A stretch of DNA of 64,000 bases from a virus, in IMG/VR virus record IMGVR_UViG_3300028837_001734, positions 1 through 64,000 of that record; one strand, 5' to 3'. Position numbers and translations under genes: made by a program. Positions 8 to 63,641 of this stretch are shown in pieces. Positions within the stretch are counted from its first letter, which is position 1. The number at the start of each line of letters is the position of its first letter. Under the pieces are notes generated by a model that did not search any database, was not told the origin of the DNA, and worked only from the letters and a program-made list of their open reading frames with translations.

Positions 8-664
8 ATGGATAGGGCAGAGACAATCATACGCAGACGCCACATTTACGAAGCAGATCTAGTATGCACAACAGACGGAGGTTGCGACGACCAATGGAAA
101 CAACAGTTCGGTGTTGACCATATAACCCTGAGACAAGGATTGCATGCGCCAGACCGCGTCTGGGTCGAGCCATATATAAGCAATTTCGACATTATTTTCG
201 TAGGCAGTGTGTACAACGATTATAGGAAACGGTTAGTATCATTCTTGTCATCAATATATGGTAATCGTTTCCGCGTTTTTGGTGGATCGGAGAAGTCACA
301 AGACCAGGTCCGTGGATTGGATCTCAATAAGTTGGTCCAATCTGTAAAGATTGTTGTTGGAGACTCCTTGCCTGGACACAACTATTGGAGCAACCGATTG
401 TACGAAATACGCGGTCGCGGCGGATTCTTATTGCATCCAGAAACATTTGGGATGGACGAGGAATTTGAGATAGGAAAGGAATTGGTAGTGTTCCCTAGAC
501 ATGCTATGGATGGACTAAGACAGCTTATAGATTATTATGTAGACCATGATGATGAACGAGAACAGATAAGAAGATGTGGCTTCGAAAGATGTCCGACTTA
601 TGATGATAGAGTGGCGGTATTATTATCCCACATCAACGATGTATTGGAGGCGAAACAATCATGA
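8..664 (+). CDS. CgeB-like GT-B glycosyltransferase (Glyco_trans_1_2), probably 5'-truncated by the window edge
   Basis: DIIFVGS...YWSNRLYEIRGRGGFLLHP...EREQIRRCGFER pattern typical of the CgeB/Glyco_trans_1_2 C-terminal domain. Confidence 0.75.
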   Translation: MDRAETIIRRRHIYEADLVCTTDGGCDDQWKQQFGVDHITLRQGLHAPDRVWVEPYISNFDIIFVGSVYNDYRKRLVSFLSSIYGNRFRVFGGSEKSQDQVRGLDLNKLVQSVKIVVGDSLPGHNYWSNRLYEIRGRGGFLLHPETFGMDEEFEIGKELVVFPRHAMDGLRQLIDYYVDHDDEREQIRRCGFERCPTYDDRVAVLLSHINDVLEAKQS

Positions 665-1593
665 AAATACGTACGACAATGATTCACCAAGCTATACCTC
701 TGAGAATGGATGCACTACTTAGAACCCTGATCCGAAGAGGACACACAATCGCTAACGATGATACCGCGGATGTCTGGTTTGTTGATTGTATATGGCCACA
801 TAAGATATATCCTGCGACCATTGATCAGATGCTGTCTTTCGGTGGAAAAATAGTTCTGGTATCTTTGGGTGACCTAAATATATTCAATATTGATGGGCTA
901 CCAGACGAACTTATACAAAAAGTATCGGCGTTCGCAAAAATACAATGGGACAATGACACATCTATATACGACAGTAGAATTATTGGAAAAAGTGTCACAA
1001 TACACCCATTCCTGGTTAGCCATCTACCACAACCTACGACCAAGAAGCATAGAGTATGTTTTCTTGGGTTACCAACAGGTGCTGAGAATGCTGAAGATAA
1101 TTTGAGAATACGTGCATGCCGGATCCTCAAGAAACAGCCATGGTTCATTGGTGGTATCGTAGGCCAAGAAGGTGGAGCAACACCCAGAGATATCAGCGGC
1201 ATAGAAGTCGGTGAACTATCTAGGAATATGTATCTTAGGTCCATCAATAGATCTCTTATCTCACTATGCATGCCTGGCAATAGTCCATTGACATATAGGT
1301 TATTTGAGAGCCTGGGAGTATGTTCTGCTGTCATTTCATGTCGTTTAGATTCAGTCAGATGGTTAAACAGGATGAATCCAAATGAACATTATCTATTAGT
1401 AAAAGATGATCTATCGGATCTATTGGAAGTATGTGAAAGAGCAGTAACAGAACCACAAGATACAGTCGAAATAGCCAAAACCGGCCATGATTTATACCAA
1501 CAATATTATTCTATCATGCCCGATCGTGGTTTGACAGATCATATGTCATATGATATATGTTGTCAATTCGGTGAGTGTGGTATACATTTCTAG
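661..1593 (+). CDS. GT-B glycosyltransferase, GT90/Glyco_trans_1_2-like
   Basis: SLCMPGNSPLTYRLFESL and NEHYLLVKDDLSDL...IAKTG motifs; ATGA overlap with the upstream gene. Confidence 0.65.
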   Translation: MKIRTTMIHQAIPLRMDALLRTLIRRGHTIANDDTADVWFVDCIWPHKIYPATIDQMLSFGGKIVLVSLGDLNIFNIDGLPDELIQKVSAFAKIQWDNDTSIYDSRIIGKSVTIHPFLVSHLPQPTTKKHRVCFLGLPTGAENAEDNLRIRACRILKKQPWFIGGIVGQEGGATPRDISGIEVGELSRNMYLRSINRSLISLCMPGNSPLTYRLFESLGVCSAVISCRLDSVRWLNRMNPNEHYLLVKDDLSDLLEVCERAVTEPQDTVEIAKTGHDLYQQYYSIMPDRGLTDHMSYDICCQFGECGIHF

Positions 1594-1602
1594 GAGATAA
1601 GG

Positions 1603-2386
1603 ATGAAAATAGGAATGCATATGGCTCATCCAGCTACTACCGATAGGTTAACAGAGCTGATCAGAACATTGGTCAAATATGATCATCATGTTGTGCCGTA
1701 CGATGGTCAAGAAGTGGATATTTTGATCGCTGGTGCATTACCACCGCATGAACATACTGACCGTCATATAGATAAAATGTCATCACACAATGGCCCACTT
1801 TTACTGTCTAGCCTCAATCAATATTCACCCAATTAAGTCAAAGAAAAAACATATCAGTTTTCATGGATTGGCTACTGGACCATTCGACAACAACATAAGA
1901 ATAATGGTGTGTAGGAAATTAAGGTCACAACCGTGGTTCAGAGGTGGGATAGTAGGTGATGCTCCTGGAGCAAGGCCGAAAGATTGGGCTGATGTAGCTA
2001 CGCAGGGTTTACCACATAGCATATTCTTGAGCGCAATTAATGAATCACGTGGTGCTTTGACGCTGCCTGGATACAATCCATTAACATACAGACTGTTTGA
2101 GGCAATGGCTGCCAAATCTGTAGCCATTACGTGTCGTCTGGAAAGTATGAGATGGCTGAACCGTTTGGATCCTGATGTTCATTATGTAAAGTTCAATGAT
2201 GATTTATCGGATTTAGTGGAGAAACGTCAACGGGTTATCGACGACGAACGATATGCTTCGAAGATAGCAGCCGCAGGACACAAAATATATCAGGATTATT
2301 ACAGACTTAACGGAGATGGTACTCTGTCTGATGCTATGTGGTCCGATATCAAAGCACAATTCGAGAAAATCGGTATAACTTTGTGA
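1603..2386 (+). pseudogene. Paralog of the 661..1593 glycosyltransferase, broken into ORFs 1603..1836 and 1790..2386
   Basis: Both halves align to 661..1593 (PLTYRLFE, HY..DDLSDL); about 50 aa are missing at the frame change near 1815-1830; true pseudogene or assembly deletion. Confidence 0.6.
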
Positions 2387-2417: not shown

Positions 2418-4262
2418 ATGATAGAATTTGCTCATTGTCAATGCAAAGTAAAAGTTGGTGAATTCAACATCAATAAAATCCCCCTTGATTGTCCTGCTGT
2501 CTGGAAGCTTGTCTCGTGTGGACATACTGTCGGTATATTCCAGCTTGAAAAAAAGTTGGGACAAGATTGGGCAAAGAAAGTACGTCCAGACGATCTTGAA
2601 GCATTAGCGGCATTAACAGCATTGTTGCGTCCTGGACCATTGGAAGCAGGAATGACACAGGACTACGTAGAGATCAAAGCTGGTGTCAGCAAGCCATCCT
2701 ATATCCATCAATTATTGGAGCCAATTCTGTCTCCTACCTATGGGTGTTTGGTTTACCAAGAACAAGCAATACGTATCGCAACGGACCTAGCCGGATTTAG
2801 TCCAGAAAATGCTGACGAACTACGTAAAGCTATTGGTAAGAAAAAACCAGAGTTAATGGCAAGGATAAAGAATAAGTTTATCGATGGATGCGAAAAACAC
2901 CAGAATATACCAAAGGGTATGGCTGAAGAAATTTTTGGGTGGATTGAAAAGTGTCAAAGATATAGTTTTAATAAATCTCATGCTATATGTTATGGTATGA
3001 TAGCATATCAAACAGCTTGGGTGAAATGTCATTTCCCACAAGAATTTTTTACCAGTTACCTAACTTATTCGGCTTACAAGAGGGATCCAAAAGAAGAGAT
3101 ATACAAATTAGTCCAAGACGCTAGACTATTTGGTATCAGGATTTTGCCTCCAGATATTAGAAGGAACAATATCCACTTCGCTATGGTCCCTGATCAAGAT
3201 AATGGCGTAGCTTTTGGACTGTCTCACATTCGTGGTGTGGGTCAATCTGCCATACAAAAAATTATTGCAGCAGTTTCTGATGGCCAATCTACTTCTGGTC
3301 TGGTTACATGGGGTGATTTTGTAGCTGCAGTCCCAGATTTGCACAGAAATGTTGGCATTGCATTGATCAAATCTGGTGCATGTGATTGTTATCAAATGGA
3401 ACGAGCTACGATGGTACAAGAATTGGAAGTAATTCTTGGAACGACCATACGTGATGATGATGGTAAGAAGGTGGAAGTCAAGGGACTTACGAAAAGAGAA
3501 AAAGAATATTTCTTCAGAAGGTTGTCTGATGGGTTATCGACCAGAGAAGTTCTTCTCGAAATGGGGCAAACTCCAGAAGAGAGACCAAAATCTATATCAC
3601 AGATGAAAAAATCAGAATTAGTTGTAGCAGCAAAGAATTTCCTTAATTCAATGGACACTATAGAATCAGGTATTCTTGATGATGATAGTATATTTGTCCA
3701 TACATCACAATCAGAAAAAGATGGATGGCTAGAAGACTTGTCTAAAAGAACAAAAATAAATATTGTGGCCATACTCAGAGCCAATGGCTACAAAGAGAAT
3801 ATCCAAAAGCCTCCTTGTTCGAGCGAAGCCAGACGTCAAAAGGTAATGGAAAAGGCTGATATATTAGATACTGAATTATTTGATAATAATAAAGCTAAAG
3901 CTGCGGCAGAAAAGCATTTTCTAGGTATTGCTTTATCATGTTCTGAAGCTGATGATGCAGATGATTCTAATGCTACTCATACATGTCTTGATATTGCCAG
4001 GGCTAATAATGACGAAACTATAATTACATGTGTTATAATAGACAATGTCAAACATACAAAAACAAAACGTGGGAGGAATCCTGGATCTCCTATGTGTTTT
4101 TTGACTATATCTGATTCTACATATTCTATTGATCATGCCGTAGTCTTTCCAGATACATATATGAAATTGAAGGGATTGTGTAAAGAAGATCTAATTTGTA
4201 TGGTATATGGACATAAAAAAAATGGGAGTTTTATCGTACAAGATATTCAAAAATTAATTTGA
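2418..4262 (+). CDS. dnaE: DNA polymerase III alpha, C-terminal portion only (finger, HhH, OB domains)
   Basis: GIFQLE, ALLRPGP, LVYQEQ, ADELRKAIGKKK, YSFNKSHA, FGLSHIRGVG and a C-terminal OB fold; PHP and catalytic palm absent. Confidence 0.9.
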   Translation: MIEFAHCQCKVKVGEFNINKIPLDCPAVWKLVSCGHTVGIFQLEKKLGQDWAKKVRPDDLEALAALTALLRPGPLEAGMTQDYVEIKAGVSKPSYIHQLLEPILSPTYGCLVYQEQAIRIATDLAGFSPENADELRKAIGKKKPELMARIKNKFIDGCEKHQNIPKGMAEEIFGWIEKCQRYSFNKSHAICYGMIAYQTAWVKCHFPQEFFTSYLTYSAYKRDPKEEIYKLVQDARLFGIRILPPDIRRNNIHFAMVPDQDNGVAFGLSHIRGVGQSAIQKIIAAVSDGQSTSGLVTWGDFVAAVPDLHRNVGIALIKSGACDCYQMERATMVQELEVILGTTIRDDDGKKVEVKGLTKREKEYFFRRLSDGLSTREVLLEMGQTPEERPKSISQMKKSELVVAAKNFLNSMDTIESGILDDDSIFVHTSQSEKDGWLEDLSKRTKINIVAILRANGYKENIQKPPCSSEARRQKVMEKADILDTELFDNNKAKAAAEKHFLGIALSCSEADDADDSNATHTCLDIARANNDETIITCVIIDNVKHTKTKRGRNPGSPMCFLTISDSTYSIDHAVVFPDTYMKLKGLCKEDLICMVYGHKKNGSFIVQDIQKLI

Positions 4263-4760: not shown

Positions 4761-5357
4761 ATGAAGAGGGATACGTCATTTGATCAATATATTCAAGCAA
4801 TGGCAGTTAGGCTATCTGGTAGATTTGATACTAGATTATCCGATACTGCCGATTATAAACAAATTGGTCATCTTAAACTTTTAGAATTACAACAATTATG
4901 GCAATTACGTAATATCAAAGGTAATTTCCGTGCGTATGCAATTAAAGCAATAGCACGAGCCATGAGAAATGAAGCCATTAAATCTATAGGAACAGTTTAT
5001 GCACCTCGTAATGTGAAAAAATTAGTAGCTAAAATTCAATTTTTATTAAATTGTGGTTTTTCTAACTCAGAAATTAAAAATAAATTAGATATATCCGATA
5101 TTAAATGGAATGAGTTACAAATTATTATTAGAGATGTTGTCTCATGGAATATATTACTCGAAGAACCATATTGTGAAACTGACCCTTATTTAGTTTTTGA
5201 CGACATAATGTCTAGTGGATTGACTGAAACAGACTGTGTGTTAATAGATGCACATCTAGAAGGCGACGTATGTTCAACGTCACTAAACCGTAAACAAAGA
5301 TGGTCTACTAGAAAAAATATGAGACCTAAGTTAATAAGGAATGGATATGGGATCTAA
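4761..5357 (+). CDS. Phage sigma-70-like factor
   Basis: Region-2-like DYKQIGHLKLLE...FRAYAIKAIARAMRNE followed by an HTH-like segment. Confidence 0.7.
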   Translation: MKRDTSFDQYIQAMAVRLSGRFDTRLSDTADYKQIGHLKLLELQQLWQLRNIKGNFRAYAIKAIARAMRNEAIKSIGTVYAPRNVKKLVAKIQFLLNCGFSNSEIKNKLDISDIKWNELQIIIRDVVSWNILLEEPYCETDPYLVFDDIMSSGLTETDCVLIDAHLEGDVCSTSLNRKQRWSTRKNMRPKLIRNGYGI

Positions 5358-8121
5358 TAGAAAACGCAGAATACTTTTCACTGGTGAAGCCTCATTTTTA
5401 GCTACAGGATTTAGTACTTATTGGAATGAAGTTTTACGTAGAATATATCCTACAGGTGAATTTGAAATAGCCGAATTAGGTAGTTATGCCCATGATGATG
5501 ATCCACGCTGTCAACAAGTGCCATGGAAATTTTACCCAGTAGGTCCAGCCCGTAGTGACCATGAAGCTATGCAAAGATATATGCCAGGTCCAGGCTCTAC
5601 TAATCAATTTGGTGAATGGCGTTTTAATGATATATGCTTAGATTTTCAACCAGATATTGTGTGTGGTATACGTGACTGGTGGATGGATGAGTTTATTTTA
5701 AGATCACCGTTACGACATAACTTCAAATTTATTTGGATGCCCACTATAGATGGGGAACCACAACGAGAATTATGGCTTGACTCGTATAAGCAATGCGATT
5801 ATATATTAACATATTCAGAATATGGGATGAGACTATTAAAAAAGACAGGACGTAGAGATACTCCATTAGTAACTGTCGCATCACCAGGTGCTGATTTAGA
5901 AATGTTTAAACCTGTACCCAATAAAAGAGAACACAAACAGAAAATGGGTATAGATCCTAATTCTATTATAATTGGTACAGTGATGAGAAACCAAAAAAGA
6001 AAATTATATTACGATTTAATAGAAGCATTTTCAAAATGGTTGCATCGTTCTAAAACCAAAGGTCATACAAAATTGACCAAAGAAACCTTTTTATATTTGC
6101 ATACGAGTTATCCTGATGTTGGATATGATATAGGTAAGGCTATTAGAGATTTCGGTGTAGGCAATAAAGTTATTATGACATATCTTTGTGGTAATTGTAA
6201 CACTGCATATCCAGCATTATTTTCTGGTGATATGGCTATATGTCGCAGATGTAATAAATTAGCTGCTCATCCACCTAACGCAAATCATTCATGTCCTAGG
6301 AATGTATTAGCAGATATAATGAATGCTTTTGACTTATATGTACAATATTCTATATGTTTGCATCCAGAAACTCCCATTATGACATCTAATGGATGGGAGA
6401 ATATTGGTGATATAAATGTTGGTGATCAAGTTATAGGCAAAGATGGTGAATTGCATCGTGTTTATAAAACAATGCGCAATCCGTCCAATACTTGTTATGA
6501 TGTAACAGTGAAAAGTAGGCCATGGTCTATAACAGCTACGGATAACCATCCTTGGTTAGTTGTCAGTACCGAATTCAATGCCCAAAGCACTTCTGTAACT
6601 GGTTCGAACGGAAGTATTGAAAGTATTGTCAATAGAGAACGATACCACAAAAATCGTGGAACTCAATGTCCTAAGTTAAAATTTACTTACAAAAGAACCG
6701 ATGAACTTAATCCTGGAGATTTATTAGCTAGTCGTATACCAAATGACCATCAATTTACACCGAAACATAATCTTCCATTTTTGACAGATACTAATACAGC
6801 AAATAATCCTTCATCATGGGATGAAGATATGGCGTATTATCTGGGATTATTTGCTGCAGGAGATGGTATTAATCTTGATCATATTAAAACAATAGCTCAG
6901 AGAATGGGTAATGAAGTAAGGACGAGATTGTATAATGATCGTGATGCTTTTGATGCAGATATAAATTGTAAAGAGTTCATGTGGGAATTACGAGATACTC
7001 TATATCACAAAGACAAAACTAAACAATTACCAATTGGATGCCATTTGTGGTCAAGGAAATTGCAGGAAAGATTAGTAGCAGGGTTACTTGCGGGAGATGG
7101 ATATCAAAAAAATGAACATCTTAACGTATACTGCACAACATCAATTCATATAGCTAAAATGTTGTGTCCATTACTAGAGAGACTTGGTTTGTATTATTGT
7201 TGCCATATTCAGTATCGAGATGGCAAACTTCCGATGTATCGTTTCGAAATCCGCACTGATGGACAACGTAAATCCCATGAAACATTATATCATAATGGTT
7301 TTGTTTTAACCGAAGTTGCATCCTCTAATATAAGCAATTTTGATGGTGAAGTGGTAAATATAGACGTAGAAGATGATCACCATTACGTAACACTTGAAGG
7401 ATTACAGCACAACTGTGAGGGTTGGGGTATGCCTCTCACAGAAGCTCAAGCATGCGGTGTACCAACTATGGCTGTACGATATTCTGCTATGGAAGATCAT
7501 TTACAAAATCCAACCTCCATACCAATTGAAGTAGAAAGATTTTTCTGGGAAGCCATTATCGAGACAGAACAAAAAAGAGCTTTGCCAAATAACATAGATT
7601 TTATCAACAAATTAGAACGATTCATTAAATTACCCGAAGATATTAGAATAGGGAAAACTCAACAAACACGACAATATATAGAAGAAATGGTTGAGACATA
7701 TAAGCAACCTGGGAAAATGAGACGTCGTGGTTGGGAACGTACTGCTGCAATATGGACTCAAGTAATTAGAGATTGTAACATTTCAGACCCATTAACTACA
7801 TGGCAATGTCCAACTGCTAGAATAAGAAAGCCAAATATGATACCACCCAGTAACAATATGAATAATGTGGAATTTGTAAACTGGGTAATAGGTCAGATTT
7901 GGGGTCGTAAAGATATGTTACGCACGCATTTTGCAGGTGAATGGTTAAAAGCTTTGAACAGTGGATCTAGAACCCAAGGAGACAAACGTACTCCATTCGA
8001 TAGACAACAATTGGTAAATCATTTTATGACATTAGTTAACCAGAATAACGAAATAGAACAACATAGAATAGCTTTGTTGAATGGTCCTAAAATTGAACAT
8101 ACAAATGTAACGGTGATATAA
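5341..8121 (+). CDS. GT4-like glycosyltransferase containing an intein
   Basis: TGFSTY, RNQKRK, FDLYVQYSI|intein|CEGWGMPLTEAQACGVP (E-x7-E GT4 motif). Confidence 0.85.
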   Translation: MDMGSNRKRRILFTGEASFLATGFSTYWNEVLRRIYPTGEFEIAELGSYAHDDDPRCQQVPWKFYPVGPARSDHEAMQRYMPGPGSTNQFGEWRFNDICLDFQPDIVCGIRDWWMDEFILRSPLRHNFKFIWMPTIDGEPQRELWLDSYKQCDYILTYSEYGMRLLKKTGRRDTPLVTVASPGADLEMFKPVPNKREHKQKMGIDPNSIIIGTVMRNQKRKLYYDLIEAFSKWLHRSKTKGHTKLTKETFLYLHTSYPDVGYDIGKAIRDFGVGNKVIMTYLCGNCNTAYPALFSGDMAICRRCNKLAAHPPNANHSCPRNVLADIMNAFDLYVQYSICLHPETPIMTSNGWENIGDINVGDQVIGKDGELHRVYKTMRNPSNTCYDVTVKSRPWSITATDNHPWLVVSTEFNAQSTSVTGSNGSIESIVNRERYHKNRGTQCPKLKFTYKRTDELNPGDLLASRIPNDHQFTPKHNLPFLTDTNTANNPSSWDEDMAYYLGLFAAGDGINLDHIKTIAQRMGNEVRTRLYNDRDAFDADINCKEFMWELRDTLYHKDKTKQLPIGCHLWSRKLQERLVAGLLAGDGYQKNEHLNVYCTTSIHIAKMLCPLLERLGLYYCCHIQYRDGKLPMYRFEIRTDGQRKSHETLYHNGFVLTEVASSNISNFDGEVVNIDVEDDHHYVTLEGLQHNCEGWGMPLTEAQACGVPTMAVRYSAMEDHLQNPTSIPIEVERFFWEAIIETEQKRALPNNIDFINKLERFIKLPEDIRIGKTQQTRQYIEEMVETYKQPGKMRRRGWERTAAIWTQVIRDCNISDPLTTWQCPTARIRKPNMIPPSNNMNNVEFVNWVIGQIWGRKDMLRTHFAGEWLKALNSGSRTQGDKRTPFDRQQLVNHFMTLVNQNNEIEQHRIALLNGPKIEHTNVTVI
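6355..7413 (+). mobile_element. Intein with a degenerate LAGLIDADG endonuclease
   Basis: Starts CLHPETPI, block B TDNHP, LGLFAAGDG and GLLAGDG motifs, ends QHN followed by +1 Cys. Confidence 0.9.
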
Positions 8122-9320: not shown

Positions 9321-10345
9321 TGCCATCAGTTCTTTCTGCTGTACTCTCTAGCATAAATAGATCACCAGAACACCCATTAAACATACTATATTCAAACAAC
9401 CATGAAGCATACAGCGCGACTCTAGCGAAAACTGGTCACAATTTTTATATGCTACAACATCCAAAATTTCATCCATGGGATGCAAAGGAAAGACCGCTCC
9501 CTCCAAATTTTACGTTATTACAGGGACAAGATATCCAACAACAACTCAAAGTAGATATTTCATTTGATCTTGTTATATCACAAAATAGAGTTGATCATTA
9601 TCCAATTATGTCTCAGATAGCAGCACAGTTAAACTGCCCATTATTACAAATGTCACATACATTACCTTGGCCCGATTGGAACGAAGAAACAATCGAGCGA
9701 GTAGGACACTTATCTGCTGATCATGATATTTTTGTCTCTGATTTTTCTACCAATGCATGGTTCCATGACTCTACTGATCCAAATGTCCAGATTATTCATC
9801 ATGGTATGGATACCGATTATTGGAATGGATGGATTGGCGGTGATGGCAAAGTAATGACAGCAGTGTGGGACTATATCCGTAGAGATCGTATCTGTGGATT
9901 CTCTTTGTGGAAAGAAGTAACAGAAGGCTTACAAGTTAATCCATGGGGTGATACTCCAGGCTTATCGAAAGTAGCAGATGGCCCAGATCATTTATTGAAC
10001 TTATATAGAAATGCTTCTGTTTTCCTCAATACTACACTTTGGTCATCTTGCCCATTTTCGCTATTAGAAGCTATGTCAGTTGGATGTCCCATTGTTACTA
10101 CTGCTACTACAATGATGCCAGAATTCATAGAAGATGGTGTTAATGGTTTTATTACTAATGATCCTATTACTATGAAAAACAGATTACGAGAATTAATTAA
10201 CAATCAAAATTTAGCAAAACAGATAGGCGATGCTGGTCGTCAAACGATAATTGAACAATTTGGGCAACAAAGATTCATAGATGAATGGAATGAAGCATTT
10301 TGGAAAGTAGCCAAAAGTCCAACAAGTAGGTGGATTGGGAGATAA
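9320..10345 (+). CDS. GT4-like glycosyltransferase
   Basis: IIHHGMD, PFSLLEAMSVGCPIVTT...IEDGVNGF. Confidence 0.85.
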   Translation: MPSVLSAVLSSINRSPEHPLNILYSNNHEAYSATLAKTGHNFYMLQHPKFHPWDAKERPLPPNFTLLQGQDIQQQLKVDISFDLVISQNRVDHYPIMSQIAAQLNCPLLQMSHTLPWPDWNEETIERVGHLSADHDIFVSDFSTNAWFHDSTDPNVQIIHHGMDTDYWNGWIGGDGKVMTAVWDYIRRDRICGFSLWKEVTEGLQVNPWGDTPGLSKVADGPDHLLNLYRNASVFLNTTLWSSCPFSLLEAMSVGCPIVTTATTMMPEFIEDGVNGFITNDPITMKNRLRELINNQNLAKQIGDAGRQTIIEQFGQQRFIDEWNEAFWKVAKSPTSRWIGR

Positions 10346-53468: not shown

Positions 53469-53482
53469 AATTTATTCACCAC

Positions 53483-56400: not shown

Positions 56401-57148
56401 AAAACCCGCTAGAATGTAAAGGGGTTGATGCCACCCAGTATGGGATATCACTAGCACTCATTGCAGTAGCTGAACCATACGTATGATCATCATTTATGAC
56501 AAATGACCTAGCATCGCCACCACCAATATTATAACCCTCAGAAAGAGTCATCTTCCCTTGATTTTCATCAAGAGTCTCAAAGCATATATTATAATAAGCA
56601 TACCCAGTAAGATTAAGAGTTCCACTCTCTGTGCAAGTTATAGTTGTATCACTTACATCAGCACCTATATGATATATTTTGTTCCTATTTCTCGCATATA
56701 CAAGAGCAAAATGTGCCCTAGTACCACCAGAAAAAGCAGTAACTTGAACATTATATGCTGTTGTGCCCAATGAATTAAAAGGTAATTTATATGCCGTATT
56801 AACAGTACATTTATCATCTGAAACTGTAATTACTCTAGCAAAAGCATCACCAGCACCAAAATGAGTACCAGCCTTATCAACACCAACTACTATAAAACTA
56901 CTTGGAGTTAAGCGAGCAGCATCTAAACCACCTAATTCACCATCACACCAATGTTCTATCGTACCACCAGTTAATTGTTCACCATACCCAGTACACGTAA
57001 CTATACGTGTATCACCGTATTTATACATGAAAGAATCAGCTTCCCAGACTATGGCATATTTATCTGGCGTAAGCTGTACTATCTCAAGTTCGTCTACGTC
57101 GACTCTAGCAGCAAATTTATATCTTTTAGTAGTGATTTGACCAGCCAT
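53483..57148 (-). CDS. Propeller-like + LamG-like + about 25 x 14-aa repeats + Zn-binding head-closure-like domain
   Basis: FTICFWF...DEVALW LamG-like motifs; SGxxDLYIGG repeats; shared C-terminal domain. Confidence 0.55.
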   Translation of the reverse strand: MAGQITTKRYKFAARVDVDELEIVQLTPDKYAIVWEADSFMYKYGDTRIVTCTGYGEQLTGGTIEHWCDGELGGLDAARLTPSSFIVVGVDKAGTHFGAGDAFARVITVSDDKCTVNTAYKLPFNSLGTTAYNVQVTAFSGGTRAHFALVYARNRNKIYHIGADVSDTTITCTESGTLNLTGYAYYNICFETLDENQGKMTLSEGYNIGGGDARSFVINDDHTYGSATAMSASDIPYWVASTPLHSSGFCVAYEGDNDLHIDYCTVASGSNTVNMQSGVTGPLTWCGFGNAPSSGIDETHFPFVYTSGTTKYLILDIATVTPGATGAVEINDYFRYDSIDSTNIYDPAIELLDPSRAAVAYSRGWEAYTVIVQVGPLDASGSCDLVITGSEGTMWVNDTDFYICGPLVESSGIDLFMQAGSSSGASIDLYMQVDSCVTGMLQPQNVRFYHKLDNIWETKRNTPWTDYGDVLDGVPSFETVSGLIVSGYHSTSNQGSRIGKTGYGSLEDCTKFTICFWFNNAYADSPGDPVVYVGYGDAPNDITADNGWSTKFYDIETSSPYIHSRLQISGVSCPAPNIYYPSGQHPTFMVLEAEYIEASGTWFTRASINGSGWSESYDTTVADLPDSVGEYAMIAFWVAEGADPDELQYLDEVALWANSGSFTNQELEKLYLLGAVFELPLCQYSDIFEGTTSGECNLYVGGYTNISGQADIFIHGHQELSDDTTSLYIGGYISISGDVDLYISSYDTLDDDADLFIWGHLPTSGDIDLYVGGKTQQSWQVDLYLAGLDTSTSGVDLYLGGKTSISGEIDLYIGGLDISTDEVDLYIYGLDTQVSGIDLYIGGYIQTSDDTDLYIFGHQSISGDVPLYLYGHTSISGDTDLFILCHESISGEIPLFIGGLDVATNQINLYIGGYLQISGDADLYIGGVVTTSDDIDLYLYGAGTDTQSIDLYIGGYTIASGDNDLFIEGHIVTSGDVDLFINGYEVDSNSVTLFINGHIPASGDDDLFIYGHIFESGSAPLAINQHVRVDSITLVINGAEIPETGISCPILSPAASIQISDSIITVYQSHMDALINQLSRNVILRFQPQRSPCPNCTWDGSRKRSTGVYKQGGPRPFKLGRQCPYCKGIGIIETQSEKCIKCLIKWHPREIENYGISIKRIDSIVRLKTYLTEMDDLMRADSAIVDRDIEGLTKLEVRKIRNPVPMGLREDRYCVSFWELI
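54035..55080 (-). repeat. Degenerate 42-bp coding tandem repeat (about 25 x xSGxxDL[YF]IxGxxx)
   Basis: Read directly from the translation: ISGDVDLYISSYDT, TSGDIDLYVGGKTQ, ISGEIDLYIGGLDI and others. Confidence 0.85.
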
Positions 57149-57903: not shown

Positions 57904-58368
57904 CTATGAGCGATCCCTCATGCCATTAACACCAATAGCAAACTGATCATAAAACCAACTAATAGTATCCAAACTAGAACCAGTAGGTGTTCTATATGGT
58001 CCTAGCACAGCACTACCAACACCGCCATCGACAGCACCAGTAGCTAACAATCGCCATTTTAACAATTCATAAGTTTTACATGGTCCTAACTCCAAAATAT
58101 CCCTATATCCACGAAAACTTACACTCGTATCGATAGCACTGTCCCCATCCCTAACCTTTATCCCTTGACCAAGAGCAGCTCTAAAATCACCCTGTGTTAG
58201 TATACAAGCAGCTTTTAATGGGACAAGAGCTTGAAATATAGGGTCTGACGAACCAGATACGGGATCAGGTGATATAGTAAGAGCACTTATATCATATGTA
58301 TATGTATATGCAAACGGTATTTCAGCATCCACAATTATACCTGCAGTGACAAGTACTCGCTGAATGAA
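57904..58368 (-). pseudogene. Head-tail adaptor-like protein, N-terminus apparently missing
   Basis: Frame reads IQRVLVTAGIIVDAEIPF...ISPDP...LKAAC...IKVRDG back to a TAA near 58369 with no clear start or RBS. Confidence 0.45.
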
Positions 58369-60485
58369 TTAGCAGTAGACCATCCCCACCTTAAAGTATC
58401 ACCTATTGCATAACATACATCGCTTGCCAAGGGTACTTCAACATTAACCCCATTAATAATATTCCAAACAGTAATAGTAGCACTAGTAGCAGCTATATCA
58501 AGTAGACCTATAATCTGTGGATCATAATCTTGTGTACGTAATAAGCGATCCATTGGATAACCAGACATATCTTGATATTGAGAATGAGCAGGACCTTCAA
58601 TATATAAATCAGCGCCAGACGTCCAAGGCAAGGGGCCAATAATCAATAAATCAATACCAGATGAAGCAGTTAAATAATTATAATTCTGATATTGGTTCAT
58701 TGGCTGAGTCTTACCATCAGCCAAATCTTCTAATATCGCAAGCTCTAAATCAGTGAATCTGGTATATGTACCACCCCACATGATCAGTTCATCAATCCAT
58801 TCATCATTGGTGGTATCTGCCATATTCATAGATGGATCACTTTGACCACTAACGATAGGTTGACTACCCTGATTCTGAACGCCCTGATTAACCCATCCAC
58901 TACCATCGACAGATGTCCTCAGATCCCAATTATCACTACCAGTATGTTCAAAGTCAAGTGCCAGAAAGTGATCATCTCCATCATTCATGGTAGCTATAAC
59001 CCCTGATACACCTGCGTCTTGCCATATCGCAGTTCCGCTACCTAAAGTGATACTAGATGGAGTAAGATTGATTTCATAATCTCTTTCAACAGTAAAAATT
59101 GATTCACCTGTTGTTATATTTTTAGCCCACATGGCTACTGTTACATGTTCACTCCCAGAAGCATCTGGATAAACAGATTCATCTGATGCTGTCAAATTAA
59201 ATCCAAAAGTTGGTGTACCACTAGCATAATATTGATCCCATATTGGTGCTGCCACTCGACGATTAACTTGATGGGCAAAAACCATCGTTGGGCTAATCAT
59301 CTTTGCACGCCCACCACCATAATAATCTGGATGGGCATAACGAACCAATTCGTTGCTAAGACTAATAGACATATCATCAATAGTAGCAACACAATATTTG
59401 CTATAACTTAATGCTGCACCATTATCATAATGGTTATAATCTATAAATATACTAGAATCATTTATTTTTGAACCATAAATACTATTAGTTGTCCAGTTAG
59501 GTGGAGGTGGAGAAACATTGGATCCTAAAGCAAACTGTACTAAAGCTCCTGAATTGAGAACACTGCCACTAACTTCCCAAACTTGAGCATAGCCACCTTT
59601 ATCAGCAGCACGATATAAAGCCATAAATTTATCGCCACTGACATGCACTAACTTACTGTGATAAACAGAAGAGTTTGGATCTAGACTAGGAAGAGTCATA
59701 TTGGTATCATATCCGCTAGATATAACAATCGAATTGCTACCATAATCTAGAGTCAAAAGATACATTTTTTGATCACTAAATAGAGCAACAGCATGAGTAT
59801 CATCTATGCCTTCAACAGCGTGACAATAATAATTACCTACTCCGCTGGTATTTGTAACACCACTAGAAATAGTATCGTTCTCAATAGTCAAAATACATGC
59901 TTGTCCATACGCTCCCATAACGATATGCCCACTCGGTATATTACCAGACATATCGCTCATAACACCAAACATAGCTTGTGTATAAATAGGACCATTACCA
60001 GCATTACAAGCATGATTATCAACAACTGTCAAAGTCTGACCTGAAACATTAACTATCTTTATAGTCTCTTTGCCAGCAGAACTCCATGCAGCAGTAAAAA
60101 CATGCCCAGTTTCAGCAACATCATCCCATGTCAATGGGAATATTAAGTTATGATTCTGAGTACCAATAATTGGTCCAAGATCACTCCAGTTAACAGTAGA
60201 ACCGCTAATATCACCAACGCGACCATAATAAGTACTAGCAACTATTTTCGTAGGTGTTACCGCGCACCAATCTTCGGTATAACAACCTGTCTGATTAAAG
60301 CCACTTTGTGGAGTACCAAATTCATAAGCTGCAACTGCCGCAGCAGAAGTACCTGCTAAATTTAATTTACCAACAACAAATGCAGATGATCCATTCCATG
60401 TCTGAGATTGTGTATCTTCCGTATAATCATCAAGTGCATGATAGAATACTACATTATCGTTGCGAATACAACCAGAAGCAGCCAT
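58335..60485 (-). CDS. LamG-like domain with an inserted propeller, SG repeats and a truncated C-terminal anchor domain
   Basis: NVVFYHALD...TVAMW...DELIMW; propeller homologous to 60858..63296. Confidence 0.55.
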   Translation of the reverse strand: MAASGCIRNDNVVFYHALDDYTEDTQSQTWNGSSAFVVGKLNLAGTSAAAVAAYEFGTPQSGFNQTGCYTEDWCAVTPTKIVASTYYGRVGDISGSTVNWSDLGPIIGTQNHNLIFPLTWDDVAETGHVFTAAWSSAGKETIKIVNVSGQTLTVVDNHACNAGNGPIYTQAMFGVMSDMSGNIPSGHIVMGAYGQACILTIENDTISSGVTNTSGVGNYYCHAVEGIDDTHAVALFSDQKMYLLTLDYGSNSIVISSGYDTNMTLPSLDPNSSVYHSKLVHVSGDKFMALYRAADKGGYAQVWEVSGSVLNSGALVQFALGSNVSPPPPNWTTNSIYGSKINDSSIFIDYNHYDNGAALSYSKYCVATIDDMSISLSNELVRYAHPDYYGGGRAKMISPTMVFAHQVNRRVAAPIWDQYYASGTPTFGFNLTASDESVYPDASGSEHVTVAMWAKNITTGESIFTVERDYEINLTPSSITLGSGTAIWQDAGVSGVIATMNDGDDHFLALDFEHTGSDNWDLRTSVDGSGWVNQGVQNQGSQPIVSGQSDPSMNMADTTNDEWIDELIMWGGTYTRFTDLELAILEDLADGKTQPMNQYQNYNYLTASSGIDLLIIGPLPWTSGADLYIEGPAHSQYQDMSGYPMDRLLRTQDYDPQIIGLLDIAATSATITVWNIINGVNVEVPLASDVCYAIGDTLRWGWSTANSFSEYLSLQV

Positions 60486-60502
60486 ATCTTACTCCTAACC
60501 TA

Positions 60503-60844
60503 TTACACCAAGTATGAAGATTGATTATTAAGAGATGGCATCCCGCCATCGATACTTCCCTTGGCAACTAATACAAAATCACCATCATCATTGTTAGTTC
60601 CATCAGACATTCGCCAATGAAATTGTTCTCTGCTAGCTGACAATATAGGAATACCACTTGTCGACCAAGTATATCTACCAGTAGAATCTATCTCTGTACA
60701 TCCACTAGCAGTCAGAGAAACGGCAACACCATCCTGCCATAATTGAATATTGACAGTCTGTCCACTAGGTAAAACTCCAACAATAGCTGGTGGAGATTCT
60801 GGACTAAAATCTAATTCTACTATGGATTGACTCAATAAACTCAT
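60503..60844 (-). CDS. Stand-alone ~110-aa beta-sandwich-like domain
   Basis: P.I.G...V.I..W...C..I...Y.WS pattern shared with neighbours. Confidence 0.5.
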   Translation of the reverse strand: MSLLSQSIVELDFSPESPPAIVGVLPSGQTVNIQLWQDGVAVSLTASGCTEIDSTGRYTWSTSGIPILSASREQFHWRMSDGTNNDDGDFVLVAKGSIDGGMPSLNNQSSYLV

Positions 60845-60857
60845 AACTTTGCCTCCA

Positions 60858-63296
60858 CTAATCTACATAACGAGGGAAATACATACCATGAGCATTAAAA
60901 GTAACATCCACATAATGTACTTCTGCGTTATCTCCAAGAAAACGAATTCTTAATCTATGTGCCACATATTCAGCAAATCTTGATCCATACAAACTTCGCA
61001 TCGACCAATACCAGAATTTTCCAAGCCCAAAATTAATACATCTGTTACCGGTAACACGTAGAATTTCCCCACTAGAGATATCCCAAACAGTAGCTGTTAC
61101 TATTGTCGGATTATTAGTAAATTTAGCACGAATAAATGGAAGACCATACCAGCCCCAGACACGTATATAACGATCAATGGGTATCCCAGTGGGCATAGTA
61201 TCATTAGTTTGTAAAGCCAGATATCTAGCTTCATGCTCAGTGGGAGAACCTGATAATTGGACTACTACACCAGACTCACTACCATCTAAGTGAGATTGTT
61301 GAATATGATCAGTACTAGCATTAATATCGCTCCAGTATAAACGACTAGCGATAGGATCAATAACAATCCCAAATGGATCAACTAAACCGTTATCTGAAGA
61401 TACAACAACTTGACAATCAGTCCCATCTTGATTAAACTTAGCTATTTCATCATTAGTTTGATCTACTGCAAATAATGATTTTTCCCATATTCCATAATAT
61501 TTTTGCGGCAACGTGTTAATAGCCAAATGGTCAAGTTTCTGCACTGGTTGTTGATATTCTAATAAACCAAAAGACCATTTCTTCACATTAGTATCAGGAG
61601 ATGGTTTATTTTTACCATTAGTTTGTAATGCTAAGATAGCCGATGGACTAATGGCAATAGCTGGAGTATTATGATCATAAAGACCAGAACACGCATATCG
61701 AACACATTCATCAGTCAGCGAGATATCAATACCATCAATAGAAGCAACTCTGTATTTGGAATAATGTAACGTTGTAGGAACAGTTCTTGAATGATAGTAC
61801 CCAATATAAACTTGTTCATCAAATAACTTACTAATATGCAAATGTGTTGTATTCCAGTTTGGTGTACCCTGTCCAAGGCTCACCTCAACAGCAGAACCTA
61901 TCTGAAAAATTTCAGCACCATTAACTTCTATAACTTGTACAACACAATTATCACCAGTAGCAATATAGGCAGCCAACACTTTATTATTACCAGCATATAC
62001 TAAACGAGAATGATATGTCCAAGAATTAGCATCAAGACTAAGTTCCATACCATCAAAGGAGTCTATAGTATCCTTGACAACAATAGTATCATCATCATAA
62101 TCCATTTCTAGAAGTCTAATTTTTTTATCGGTAGTCAATAATAAAGCTCTTCTGTCATCAATGCGTATAACATCAACAGAGTAAAATCCACTCGCAATAG
62201 TATGCGCAGTACCACTAGTCATTGTTTCGCCATCAATAGACATAATACAAGCTTTACCATAATCGGCCATTAGTATATGCCCAGTTGGAGAACCAGTTCC
62301 AAAAATATCTAAATTAGTACATCTAAGATGTCTCCATGATTTTAAAAAGAGACCAGAAACAACTGTATATCCAGAACTAGATGCATCAATAGATACCAAG
62401 TTAACACTTCCTTCGTTAACTTGCCCGCCATCTGCATATCCAAAAACATAACCTGATTGTATTGATTCATCCCACGTTAATGGTACAAGATCAGCTTTAT
62501 TTTGATTACACATAGGAACACCCATGTCTCCCCATGCAATAGTAGTATTTTCATCTACTTCATCTACTGGATCACTTAAATTACCTATCCTACCATAATA
62601 ATCCTGATATACTACAGTTGAATTACCAAGCATACAAAATGTAATACTCCCACCGTGCGTAGTTTGTGTAAATCCTGATACCTCAGTGGTAAACTCAAAA
62701 CCAGAAACAGCAGGATCATCACCTGCACTTATAACTGTTATAGTTTCTTGTCCAGTCCCATCTAAATTAGCGCAAATTAATGTTCCATCACCAGATCCAT
62801 TAAAATACATCTTTTTATCAGATGGTTTATGTGTTCCGCTATAATCAATATCGATAGCTAAAAACGGTAAATCATAATTAACAGCCGTAACTATCCCAGA
62901 TTTATTGTCACCATCAACATCACATCGCCAAATCTCATATTTCCCTGATACCTTAGTCGTATAATACAACTCAGCACCATTTTCTACATAAAATTCATTC
63001 TGGTCGATCGCTATAGCTAAAGCTAATGGATTAGTTAAACCACTAACAATAGTAGTTTCATTATCCCCATTTAAATCAGCCTTTTTAATAGTTCCGCTAG
63101 CATGCTCAATCCAAAAGACTTTTTCCAATCTATCACGATAAAAATTAGGTATTGTATCAATAACAACACCTCCATAAAGATTAGTGCCAGACACAGAAGC
63201 AATGGTCTCATGAACTCCGTCAGGAAGGCCCTTTCTAGTAACTGGATAACCAAATTTTTGTGACCAATAAATATAATCTTTATTAGCTACTGCCAT
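60858..63296 (-). CDS. YWTD propeller with a second inserted propeller and a C-terminal anchor domain
   Basis: IYWS, VFWIE, ANLDG, LYWSD; GGAGG RBS. Confidence 0.6.
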   Translation of the reverse strand: MAVANKDYIYWSQKFGYPVTRKGLPDGVHETIASVSGTNLYGGVVIDTIPNFYRDRLEKVFWIEHASGTIKKADLNGDNETTIVSGLTNPLALAIAIDQNEFYVENGAELYYTTKVSGKYEIWRCDVDGDNKSGIVTAVNYDLPFLAIDIDYSGTHKPSDKKMYFNGSGDGTLICANLDGTGQETITVISAGDDPAVSGFEFTTEVSGFTQTTHGGSITFCMLGNSTVVYQDYYGRIGNLSDPVDEVDENTTIAWGDMGVPMCNQNKADLVPLTWDESIQSGYVFGYADGGQVNEGSVNLVSIDASSSGYTVVSGLFLKSWRHLRCTNLDIFGTGSPTGHILMADYGKACIMSIDGETMTSGTAHTIASGFYSVDVIRIDDRRALLLTTDKKIRLLEMDYDDDTIVVKDTIDSFDGMELSLDANSWTYHSRLVYAGNNKVLAAYIATGDNCVVQVIEVNGAEIFQIGSAVEVSLGQGTPNWNTTHLHISKLFDEQVYIGYYHSRTVPTTLHYSKYRVASIDGIDISLTDECVRYACSGLYDHNTPAIAISPSAILALQTNGKNKPSPDTNVKKWSFGLLEYQQPVQKLDHLAINTLPQKYYGIWEKSLFAVDQTNDEIAKFNQDGTDCQVVVSSDNGLVDPFGIVIDPIASRLYWSDINASTDHIQQSHLDGSESGVVVQLSGSPTEHEARYLALQTNDTMPTGIPIDRYIRVWGWYGLPFIRAKFTNNPTIVTATVWDISSGEILRVTGNRCINFGLGKFWYWSMRSLYGSRFAEYVAHRLRIRFLGDNAEVHYVDVTFNAHGMYFPRYVD

Positions 63297-63305
63297 TCTT
63301 CCTCC

Positions 63306-63641
63306 TTACCCAACCAAAACAAAATTACGTATTTCTGTAAAAATTTGTATATACGCTATTTCATCTGTATCTGATTTCATTCGACAAAGAAAACGATATT
63401 TACCATTTTGGAAATCTGGTAAATATTTCATTTTCCATCCCCAATATTCATCCGGCATTTGAAAGCAATATTCATAATCTAAATCAATTAATACTTCGGT
63501 ATCCATATTCCAGATGGTTATCTCAACTTCATCTGGATTATCATCAAACTTAGCATATATAATCGGATCTGTTAAAGGAATGCCTAATCTAACATGATAC
63601 ATCTTTTGAAAATCGACACCAGTCGGCATAGATTCTGCCAT
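63306..63641 (-). CDS. Stand-alone domain homologous to the C-terminus of 60858..63296
   Basis: MPTG...P.I.AKF..NP..V....W. Confidence 0.55.
   Translation of the reverse strand: MAESMPTGVDFQKMYHVRLGIPLTDPIIYAKFDDNPDEVEITIWNMDTEVLIDLDYEYCFQMPDEYWGWKMKYLPDFQNGKYRFLCRMKSDTDEIAYIQIFTEIRNFVLVG

Follow-up and report, generated by a model that had tools for sequence, protein, structure and literature searches.

Glycan genes and a Ser-Gly bias in outer virion proteins, side by side in a phage genome

The 64,000-nucleotide window that we analyzed (positions 1 to 64,000 of the IMG/VR virus record IMGVR_UViG_3300028837_001734) comes from an uncultured, sediment-type phage. It carries a glycan-gene island and encodes virion proteins with an excess of the dipeptide Ser-Gly (SG). 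Both features are real, but nothing so far links one to the other. The reading that we favor, tentatively and at slightly under an even chance, is that SG reflects a structural habit of this lineage. Across the beta-rich outer modules of these phages (tube loops, blades of propellers and a two-strand repeat of 14 residues), the turns and short arcs that join strands would be spelled Ser-Gly where other proteins would use Asp-Gly or Asn-Gly, and duplication and exchange of the modules would then have spread the habit. On this reading SG would be no sequon, and the protein encoded by 661..1593 would not be its enzyme.

Ser-Gly in the virion proteins

An earlier note on this DNA had counted SG by hand in ten ORFs. 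All ten counts were reproduced exactly, both in the enriched proteins (Table 1) and where SG is scarce: the tape measure protein, 20725..22431 (2 SG in 568 residues), 18305..20722 (4 in 805), part of DnaE (3 in 614) and an RNA ligase (3 in 684). Comparing observed with expected SG in each ORF, and SG with GS, rules out amino acid composition as the cause. Composition-keeping shuffles (2000 per protein) placed 8 of 67 ORFs at p<=0.003. Taken together, 12 structural proteins contain 165 SG versus 58.9 expected (O/E 2.80, z 13.8), making it the strongest of all dipeptides in the set; GS is not raised, and DG (0.86), NG (1.02) and TG (0.76) are not either. The remaining 94 ORFs have an SG O/E of 1.00 and a DG O/E of 1.61. 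Furthermore, SG-biased ORFs number 2 of 274 in five unrelated reference phages versus 8 of 47 in this phage (ORFs of at least 200 amino acids, Poisson p<0.01).

An artifact of composition, of a DNA motif or of one repeat family is almost certainly the wrong explanation. The SG-rich proteins are high in S and G, and a single repeat holds 16 SG in 53483..57148. However, the shuffles refute this explanation, as do the SG-coding hexamers, which are raised in frame 0 only (26.7 per 1000 positions, compared with 1.9 and 3.9 out of frame), and the 125 SG (47.0 expected) that persist without the repeat zones. The Ser of SG is coded by both Ser codon families. The SG bias is selected at the protein level.

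The bias is not present in the tape measure protein, portal, terminase or enzymes of the phage, and the major capsid protein (MCP) has 2 SG where 2.0 are expected. These data support a bias that is strong, Ser-specific, orientation-specific and restricted to a subset of virion proteins. The description of the carriers as surface-type applies to the tube by its fold and weakly to a cement protein, and comes from gene position in the others. Similarly, the unrelated folds claimed for them reduce to about eight homology groups for the 12 proteins, although one representative per group still has an O/E of 1.8–4.4. The two small paralogs of 15160..16501 share 38% identity and have no family match and no Atlas lead. 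The two neck-region proteins share 45% identity over 287 C-terminal amino acids, and the two proteins adjoining the head genes share 35% over 381 amino acids, the second of them (60858..63296) being a further match to the YWTD propeller family (PF00058). About 24 copies of the 14-residue repeat lie in 53483..57148; 22954..25596 ends in this repeat, its C-terminus matching that zone, and similar repeats add SG in 22954..25596 and 58335..60485. The AF2 model of the tube matches the T5 and P74-26 tube chains (Foldseek E 1e-10 to 1e-7).

Table 1. Glycan-island genes, SG-rich virion proteins and an internal control in the window
Feature	Coordinates	Strand	Evidence
GT-B glycosyltransferase, C-terminal two thirds, cut by contig end	2..664	+	PF13524 E 1.2e-17; frame open to base 2
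GT-B-like protein, "GT90-like" in the earlier note	661..1593	+	PF13524 E 2.4e-3, below cut-off
Short PF13524 glycosyltransferase-like protein	1790..2386	+	PF13524 E 5e-8
Split DnaE, C-terminal half; island border, outside the pathway	2418..4262	+	DNA_pol3_finger E 9.7e-48, HHH_6
GT1-type glycosyltransferase with intein, island core gene	5341..8121	+	Hom_end_hint, Hint_2, Glycos_transf_1, each below Pfam cut-off
GT4 glycosyltransferase, core gene	8121..9320	+	PF00534 E 6.6e-14; in 11/11 relatives
GT4 glycosyltransferase	9320..10345	+	PF00534 E 5.2e-15, PF13692
Probable methyltransferase	10349..10822	+	PF13489 E 3.9e-4, below cut-off
Island protein without assignment	10819..11610	+	No sequence match in Pfam, NCBIfam, PDB
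GT2 (GT-A) glycosyltransferase, soluble	11614..12378	+	PF00535 E 5.9e-11; no membrane-like segment
Two island proteins without family match	12371..12964 + 12951..13940 (span 12371..13940)	+	
Two small SG-rich paralogs, tail-module end	15160..15798 + 15866..16501 (span 15160..16501)	-	10 SG in 212 aa (O/E 2.72); 5 SG (O/E 2.08)
SG-rich distal tail proteins	22443..23030 + 22954..25596 (span 22443..25596)	-	6 SG (O/E 2.68); 25 SG in 880 aa (O/E 2.35)
Tape measure protein, internal control	25607..30709	-	PF10145 E 1.2e-25; 8 SG in 1700 aa vs 9.1 expected, no excess
Two paralogous YWTD-type beta-propellers	46100..47122 + 47064..48092 (span 46100..48092)	-	PF00058 E 2.1e-11 and 5.8e-6; 14 SG vs 4 GS in 340 aa (SG O/E 4.41); 7 SG (O/E 2.41)
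Tail tube protein, duplicated tube domain, T5 pb6 / P74-26 type	48132..49238	-	AF2 pLDDT 78.9, pTM 0.81; 11 SG in 368 aa, O/E 2.9
Structural protein located between tube and neck; SG mildly in excess	50043..50978	-	5 SG, O/E 2.64, shuffle p 0.026
Two large neck-region proteins, common C-terminal domain	51669..53468 + 53483..57148 (span 51669..57148)	-	11 SG (O/E 2.35); 32 SG (O/E 2.82)
Two large SG-rich proteins adjoining head genes, common middle domain	58335..60485 + 60858..63296 (span 58335..63296)	-	21 SG in 716 aa (O/E 3.16); 18 SG (O/E 3.27)

Structural context and relatives

SG is located at strand-flanking turns and loops. A, V, T or S precedes it, T, S, V, I or L follows, and V, I or L stands two residues past the Gly; these strand-like flanks on both sides are consistent with a structural habit. 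The first four SG pairs of the 46100..47122 propeller alternate between spacings of 20–25 and 14–15 residues, which corresponds to a pair of fixed positions in each blade. Within the repeat of 14 residues, SG occupies the turn preceding a D-L-Y-I strand, and other copies have SD, TD, TN or SN at the same spot. AF2 models the repeat zone as entirely beta, the SG pairs lying in turns, and fold comparison of this model produced nothing significant (E 0.96 for TibA 4q1q, 0.13 for Ag43 4kh3). The only invariant residues in the repeats of 12 relatives are the L and G of LFIxG. Furthermore, three relatives (L098, L105 and L093) have TN, NN or TQ in place of SG although their genomes retain the island.

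The tube has a median SG O/E of 2.4 across 120 homologs, among which N, D, A, T or G can take the place of Ser at the SG sites. Nine of these sites align without many gaps, and at eight of the nine the conservation of Gly equals or exceeds that of Ser. Sites 128, 138, 193 and 234 are retained in homologs at 42–50% identity, in line with a structural habit. However, sites 26, 33 and 38 lie in a low-confidence loop of the AF2 model instead of a tight hairpin.

Gene content across relatives, all of which carry GTs, also argues for a structural habit and against a sequon. The SG index correlates neither with glycan-gene content (rho 0.08, p 0.82, n 11 whole relatives) nor with the PF13524 count (rho 0.15, p 0.54, n 19). 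In distant relatives whose island is syntenic, the genome-wide SG O/E is at baseline (1.18–1.20, compared with 1.03–1.27 in the reference phages). On the other hand, G019 is the sole relative free of the bias (SG index 0.99), and its glycan set is the smallest, with 4 of the 20 query genes.

The structural habit has further difficulties. Ser is not a favored residue before Gly in turn statistics, the usual ones being Asp and Asn, and the reference phages are rich in beta-type fibers yet show no SG excess. Structure by itself therefore leaves the choice of Ser unexplained. The bias also recurs in domain groups with no detectable homology to one another, and the depletion of TG next to the SG excess is the pattern expected of a Ser-only transferase. 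Some glycan genes, moreover, are located within the head module. Like the arcs of beta-solenoids and propellers, the phage places SG between strands at periodic positions; unlike their usual turns, it chooses Ser exclusively in many unrelated modules, for which fold is no explanation.

Asn-Gly and Asp-Gly deamidate or isomerize spontaneously, and long-lived outer virion proteins could avoid them by placing Ser-Gly at the same turn positions. DG falls from the other ORFs to the SG-rich set as SG rises, and Ser alternates with Asn at tube site 234 (63 versus 46 of 120 homologs), in agreement with such chemical durability. We nevertheless consider it improbable as the cause. There is no depletion of NG (1.02 versus 1.13 in the other ORFs), the pair that is most labile, and the S- and G-rich proteins of the reference phages, which have no SG excess, likewise show a DG O/E around 1 (0.91–1.32 across the four sets of two or more proteins; Stills contributes one protein, with 0 DG).

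The glycan island and its possible acceptors

The 8–9 GT-like genes and one methyltransferase of the earlier note were partly borne out: Pfam backs seven GT-like ORFs (8-664, 661-1593 [below cut-off], 1790-2386, 5341-8121, 8121-9320, 9320-10345 and 11614-12378) and one weak methyltransferase, and three ORFs have no match. They do form one large cluster, but the C-terminal half of DnaE and SSB interrupt it and the contig end cuts it. In one relative (G004) the homolog of the truncated first gene encodes 312 amino acids (71% identity over 214), and the N-terminal half of DnaE lies about 10 kb away, across the island. Homologs of 5341..8121 and 12951..13940 are present in 11 of 11 relatives, and 9320..10345 is in 10 of 11, with G019 as the sole absence. 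NCBIfam gives 8121..9320 generic GT4 matches only. Interspersed with the terminase, portal and capsid genes are genes for a GDP-mannose 4,6-dehydratase (GMD), one more GT and an FkbM methyltransferase. No island protein has a membrane-like segment. The genes establish that the phage has a glycan pathway and support its description as large, soluble, of nucleotide-sugar type and equipped with several methyltransferases. Together, the island and head-block enzymes should build a methylated, deoxyhexose-containing glycan in the cytoplasm. We infer this product and its acceptor, with virion proteins as the most plausible acceptor.

Phage-borne GT clusters are often assumed to remodel host envelope glycans. 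The island could act on LPS, capsule or a teichoic-type polymer, or make a free or lipid-linked glycan, and the SG bias would then be unrelated. Consistent with this, the main island lies between the two DnaE halves among replication genes, on the + strand and divergent from the structural genes; its content is exchangeable among relatives, and its GT4 and GT2 matches are generic polysaccharide enzymes. Such a role is nonetheless unlikely. The lack of membrane-like segments in island proteins, of a GtrA-type flippase in all five records searched (the contig and four complete relatives) and the location of the GMD, GT and FkbM genes in the head block argue against it. The neighborhood of replication genes could also suggest T4-like hypermodification of phage DNA, which we consider very improbable: the thymidylate-synthase/hydroxymethylase family (PF00303) is in none of the five records. 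Known DNA sugar additions need far fewer genes than this set of at least seven GTs, GMD and several methyltransferases.

The earlier note had nominated 661..1593 as a GT90-like initiating enzyme, and this was not supported. No PF05686 match (E<=1) was found in any of the five records. The sole GT90 hint comes from POGLUT2 (9w47_A), matched locally and weakly (E 0.0066 over 47 amino acids). Its Atlas structural neighbors are PF13524 clusters, in one of which 37% of the members carry PF05686. It resembles GT90/POGLUT enzymes in a GT-B fold of PF13524 type but lacks a match to their family, and the candidate acceptors are not EGF repeats. Among the 11 whole relatives, three have a homolog (SG index 1.37, 1.72 and 1.55), and those with the highest indices (2.41, 2.13 and 1.87) have none. 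The gene is thus missing where the bias is strongest, and its product is not a Pfam GT90; both speak against it as the enzyme behind the bias.

Ser-Gly as a glycosylation signal and known systems

In amended form, a sequon-like role is unlikely. Exposed SG Ser of outer virion proteins would be O-glycosylated in the cytoplasm by a core GT (5341..8121, 8121..9320 or 9320..10345, not 661..1593) that would recognize a strand-turn-strand shape instead of a linear sequon, like TibC on TibA; other island enzymes would extend and methylate the putative glycan into a coat. The rank and specificity of SG, its selection at the amino acid level, its recurrence across domain groups and its absence from the tape measure protein, portal, terminase, enzymes and reference phages are consistent with this role, as are the solubility of the island enzymes, the missing DNA-target hydroxymethylase, the sugar genes among head genes and the joint lack of the bias and of most glycan genes in G019. 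However, the index does not covary with glycan genes, island-bearing relatives swap SG for other pairs or stay at baseline, and there is no excess in the MCP, the exposed protein of highest abundance. The phage's own GTs contain 3 SG where 10.5 are expected, but this depletion is not repeated in G004 (23 versus 26.2).

The xylosyltransferase sequon of animal proteoglycans, a precedent raised in the earlier note, has a Ser-Gly core with acidic flanks. The phage sites have the core in common, but A, V, T or S before and T, S, V, I or L after replace the acidic context. Chlorovirus PBCV-1 has its own GMD, together with several soluble GTs and with methyltransferases for sugars; these enzymes act in the cytoplasm, and the glycans are N-linked to the major capsid protein. 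The phage has a similar enzyme set but an unbiased MCP.

The autotransporter heptosyltransferases TibC and AAH act in the cytoplasm on many Ser of TibA and AIDA-I, which are repetitive beta-strand proteins, and TibC heptosylates Ser, not Thr, of TibA, one mapped site being Ser-313 in N-S-G-G (PMC4358343). The resemblance is one of working principle, not of family: a BAHT-type GT9 enzyme was above cut-off in none of the five records. In mycobacteriophages, phage-encoded GTs O-glycosylate virions, with glycans at the C-termini of capsid and tube subunits (Freeman et al. 2023, as cited in PMC12619734). As there, ours is a tailed phage with its own GTs and with tube and capsid-associated proteins as candidate acceptors. 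In contrast, the final 40 residues of the MCP here include 1 S/T, and MCP and tube both lack an S/T-rich tail; the candidate sites are internal and number in the hundreds, and the gene set is far larger.

Ser-Gly excess in virion proteins

The excess of the Ser-Gly (SG) dipeptide in this phage is confirmed and unusual. The earlier note had made ten hand counts of SG and proposed comparing observed with expected SG in each ORF. All ten counts were exact on recount, and 8 of the 67 ORFs reached p ≤ 0.003 in the per-ORF comparison (2000 composition-preserving shuffles per protein). Pooling 12 proteins (6207 aa) gave 165 SG against 58.9 expected (observed/expected, O/E, 2.80; z 13.8; top dipeptide), a ratio inflated by selection because the set was chosen for its SG. 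The same proteins had values of 0.86 for DG, 1.02 for NG, 0.76 for TG and 0.91 for GG; the other 94 ORFs had an SG O/E of 1.00 and a DG O/E of 1.61. The shuffles and pooled dipeptide statistics together rule out composition as the cause.

The genome-wide SG O/E (1.70) also lies above the range (1.03-1.27) of T5, P23-45, Stills, T4 and SPO1. Poisson p values below 0.01 were found for 8 of 47 ORFs of at least 200 aa here versus 2 of 274 in these five reference phages, and the S+G-rich large proteins had an O/E of 2.53 versus 0.76-1.26. This comparison rules out a habit common to all phage fibre proteins. Ser codons within SG are TCN and AGY, as for any Ser, and SG-coding hexamers are raised in frame 0 only. 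Thus, the bias acts on the protein, and a DNA motif or codon effect is ruled out. Nor is a single repeat family responsible, for 125 SG remain against 47.0 expected once the repeat zones are removed.

The enriched proteins (see table) include the tail tube, for which Foldseek recovered the duplicated tail-tube fold of the T5 pb6 / P74-26 type. SG is not enriched in the tape measure (PF10145), the terminase, the hub-sized tail proteins, any of the enzymes or the ORF occupying the place of the portal gene (68297..70396), which matches no family. The major capsid protein (MCP), identified by its match to 6wkk (E 5.7e-7), has 2 SG versus 2.0 expected. The earlier claim that unrelated folds share the bias holds in a narrower form: the 12 proteins make up about eight homology groups, and one segment per group still gives an O/E of 1.8-4.4. 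For the protein at 15160..15798, the Atlas neighbours are unnamed viral clusters only.

Features of the contig and of related phages (bw, beyond the window)
Feature	Coordinates	Evidence and remarks
Tail tube	48132..49238	AF2 pLDDT 78.9; Foldseek T5, DT57C and P74-26 tube chains, E 1e-10 to 1e-7, probability 1.00
SG-enriched YWTD propellers	third propeller at start of 60858..63296	two proteins plus the third propeller
Other SG-enriched proteins		two neck-region giants with common C-terminus; two large proteins beside head genes; distal tail proteins; small paralogue pair
Cement-like protein	65189..65692 (bw)	SG O/E 2.84; 2.33-4.42 in 19/19 relatives
GT-like	8-664	PF13524; truncated by contig end; homologue in relative G004 has 312 aa
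GT-like	661-1593	PF13524, E 2.4e-3, below cut-off
GT-like	1790-2386	PF13524
GT1-type	5341-8121	weak GT1 match; carries Hint/intein
GT4	8121-9320	Pfam
GT4	9320-10345	Pfam
Methyltransferase, weak match	10349-10822	Pfam
GT2	11614-12378	Pfam
FkbM methyltransferase	67583..68251 (bw)	adjoins terminase, portal and capsid genes
GDP-mannose 4,6-dehydratase (GMD)	73100..74116 (bw)	among head genes; E 1.7e-115
PF13524 GT	74359..75489 (bw)	among head genes
Long terminases of relatives	G004 27069-30338; G016 123014-126265; G017 13106-16366	partial alignment to the terminase of this contig

Ser-Gly sites in turns, repeats and the tube

The position of SG in the models was read from DSSP and pLDDT. Its flanks are strand-like, with A/V/T/S before the dipeptide and V/I/L two residues past the Gly. 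The 163 SG sites carry A/V/S/T at -1 and T/S/L/V/D at +1, and D and E next to SG are not enriched. SG spacing in the YWTD-type propeller at 46100..47122 alternates between 20-25 and 14-15 residues over the first four pairs, which corresponds to two fixed places per blade.

We also identified a 14-residue unit, roughly D-L-Y-I-x-G-x-x-x-x-S-G-x-x, present in about 24 copies in the protein at 53483..57148 (residues 690-1030) and again at the C-terminus of that at 22954-25596. SG occupies 16 of the copies, and SD, TD, TN, SN and the like fill the others. AF2 modelling from an alignment of 13 repeat zones predicted a series of short beta-strands, an all-beta structure of moderate confidence (pLDDT 69.6, pTM 0.54) in which the turn leading into the D-L-Y-I strand holds SG. 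Solved structures yielded no significant fold match to the repeat (best, Ag43, E 0.13), which on the model may represent a hitherto undescribed fibre or solenoid fold. Across the repeat alignment, the L and G of 'LFIxG' alone are invariant; three loci of relatives (L098, L105 and L093) have TN, NN or TQ at the SG position.

The tail tube retains the bias widely (median SG O/E 2.4 over 120 homologues). Its sites 128, 138, 193 and 234 are kept at 42-50% identity, whereas sites 26, 33, 38, 171, 206, 220 and 240 are confined to the clade and fall within loops rich in indels, three of them in a low-confidence loop. At eight of the nine sites aligned without many gaps, the Gly column is conserved at least as well as the Ser column, and N, D, A, T and G alternate with the Ser. 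Our leading reading, held with slightly less than even confidence, is that SG is a structural turn in outer virion modules. Fold statistics do not account for the SG dipeptide rule.

Glycan genes and their candidate acceptor

The glycan island at 8-12964 contains seven GT-like ORFs by Pfam (five above their own cut-off), and one more lies beyond the window. Pfam has no match for three ORFs of the cluster, and a PDB sequence search returned nothing usable for 10819..11610, 12371..12964, 12951..13940, 4761..5357 or the cement protein. The C-terminal half of DnaE (2418-4262) and an SSB gene (4323-4751) break the cluster. In the complete genome of the relative G004, the island extends past the position of the contig end, up to the N-terminal half of DnaE (PHP and Pol III alpha domains; locus L035, 11234-13609), which is about 10 kb from the C-terminal half with the whole island between. 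The island therefore fills the gap of a split DnaE, and our contig holds the C-terminal half only because its end falls inside the island. The G004 island also encodes two methyltransferases, a PfkB sugar kinase, a radical-SAM/methyltransferase fusion and a GT2.

An intein lies within the GT gene at 5341-8121, where Hom_end_hint and Hint_2 match residues 338-429. Homologues of this GT are 528-558 aa long in G019 and G016 but reach 932-975 aa in G017 and G004; only some of the relatives therefore have the intein. At the island end, a Whirly-like protein (13942-14418; PF08536, E 2e-4, below cut-off) is possibly, by its sequence, a second single-strand DNA-binding protein beside the SSB.

The earlier interpretation stands in part: the phage does have a large pathway for making a methylated glycan, most plausibly with virion proteins as the acceptor. 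The initiating enzyme that the earlier note named was wrong. DNA glycosylation by the GTs is unlikely, because a ThyA-family hydroxymethylase (PF00303) was found in none of five records, four of them complete. Gtr-type seroconversion is also unlikely: the GtrA flippase (PF04138) is missing from all five records, and membrane-like segments, which were predicted in 14 of 106 ORFs, occur in none of the glycan set, island proteins included. The enzymes could instead act on a non-virion target such as a host envelope glycan. The GT4 and GT2 enzymes resemble generic families and the island sits among replication genes, in keeping with this alternative, which we judge improbable and which concerns the target of the enzymes rather than the cause of the SG bias.

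A depletion of SG in the phage's own GT and methyltransferase proteins (3 versus 10.5 expected, P 0.007) might have indicated 'sequon avoidance', but the G004 island has 23 versus 26.2 expected and this idea was rejected.

Ser-Gly and sugar genes across relatives

Apart from their co-occurrence in a single genome and one weak contrast, nothing supports a link from SG to sugar, and several comparative results go against it. No GT-free relative was found: PF00534 occurs in 15 of 15 records and PF13524 in 19 of 21, the two exceptions being 82% and 27% complete. Pooled SG O/E over 31 tube loci ranged from 0.94 to 2.65; it was unrelated to the PF13524 count (rho 0.15, p 0.54, n=19) and weakly related to GC content (rho 0.36, p 0.046). 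We also scored eleven whole relatives for 20 glycan genes and for an SG index, the SG O/E in S+G-rich large ORFs. The index (0.99-2.41) did not correlate with how many glycan homologues a genome holds (rho 0.08, p 0.82, n=11); the genomes are related, and thus their rows are not statistically independent. In the distant relatives G016 and G017 the island is syntenic, and their genome-wide SG O/E is 1.19-1.20, with two to three enriched proteins each.

The ORFs 5341..8121, 8121..9320 and 12951..13940 have homologues in all 11 relatives. The one relative without the bias, G019, keeps 4 of the 20 glycan genes and lacks 9320..10345, GMD, the methyltransferase and the GT2, in a genome that is only 82% complete. 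This contrast fits the sequon idea and proves nothing. SG-directed glycosylation of virion serines remains, in our estimate, rather doubtful.

The GT-like protein at 661..1593, which the earlier note had put forward as a GT90-like initiating enzyme, has homologues only in G004, G003 and G009 (index 1.37, 1.72 and 1.55) and is absent from G014, G008 and G011 (2.41, 2.13 and 1.87). Pfam does not support GT90 membership, as it gives PF13524 alone and PF05686 (GT90) was found in none of five records at E ≤ 1. Two hints of GT90 were seen: the protein aligns with POGLUT2 (9w47_A) over 47 residues (E 0.0066, 18.8 bits), and one of its Atlas neighbour clusters has PF05686 on 37% of members. With patchy homologues, none in the relatives with the strongest bias, and no PF05686 match, 661..1593 cannot be a general initiator. 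Neither this GT nor that at 74359..75489 had a tblastn match in cultured phages.

Known systems offer partial parallels. Phage-encoded GTs are present here as in mycobacteriophages, whose capsid and tube subunits are glycosylated at their C-termini according to a statement in PMC12619734 (citing Freeman et al., 2023). By that statement the two systems differ, for the MCP here has one S/T in its last 40 residues, and neither it nor the tube has an S/T-rich C-terminal tail; if the SG serines were glycosylated, the sites would be internal and number in the hundreds. The acidic flanks of G-S-G in the proteoglycan xylosylation sequon are not seen among the 163 SG sites. The nearest working analogy is TibC/AAH: TibC heptosylates Ser, not Thr, of TibA, including Ser-313 in N-S-G-G (PMC4358343). 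The GT9 domain of these BAHT enzymes (PF01075) is above cut-off in none of five records, with one sub-threshold match in G004. The BAHT acceptor is a beta-helix of short repeats with Ser at turns; the repeat model here, at its moderate pLDDT, places SG in turns of an all-beta structure and has no significant fold match. Among the titles and abstracts listed in a literature search, none dealt with an SG sequon on phage virions.

The Ser of SG turns and loops on outer virion proteins might be a shape-defined acceptor (a 'structural sequon') that a conserved, soluble GT-B core (5341..8121, 8121..9320 and 9320..10345) would load with a methylated, deoxyhexose-containing glycan before or during assembly, a proposal that we consider unlikely. 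If it were true, the device would occur in many uncultured aquatic phage groups, and particles in sediment and water would commonly wear a self-made sugar coat. If the SG serines carried sugar, the phage would build itself a dense glycan coat attached at hundreds of internal positions; a very large uncultured clade would share this device, which would matter for particle persistence, adsorption and recognition. Bare serines would leave an unusually strong, lineage-specific dipeptide rule in virion appendage proteins and a warning to sequon hunters.

The window covers the opening 64 kb of a virus contig of 90,160 bases that is 54% complete (CheckV); its uncultured relatives span 160-181 kb, and direct terminal repeats occur in several of them. 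When 12 kb and 14.5 kb of the window were compared with cultured phages by Megablast, no match was found; none of 20 structural proteins matched PHROGs, and tblastn showed no more than 26% identity between the large terminase and cultured phages. Thus, there is no close cultured phage. At E ≤ 0.001, 3650 of the 8000 candidates scored are relatives of the tube, and the clade carrying its gene is, as judged from these sequences, very large and uncultured. Two tube homologues at 80-83% identity (P0008 and P0035) bear the public labels of Heimdallarchaeota and Pacearchaeota MAGs; most likely they are phage contigs binned with archaeal genomes. DnaE and SSB of our contig are bacterial-type.

Within the RNA ligase gene (41731-43785) lies a further intein, which includes a LAGLIDADG endonuclease (Intein_splicing E 2.8e-14; LAGLIDADG_2 E 7.6e-23). 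The large terminase of the contig (70458-72620, beyond the window) has 720 aa, and those of three relatives, which align only partially, have 1083-1089 aa. From their length and alignment, these longer terminases probably carry an insertion, for example an intein.
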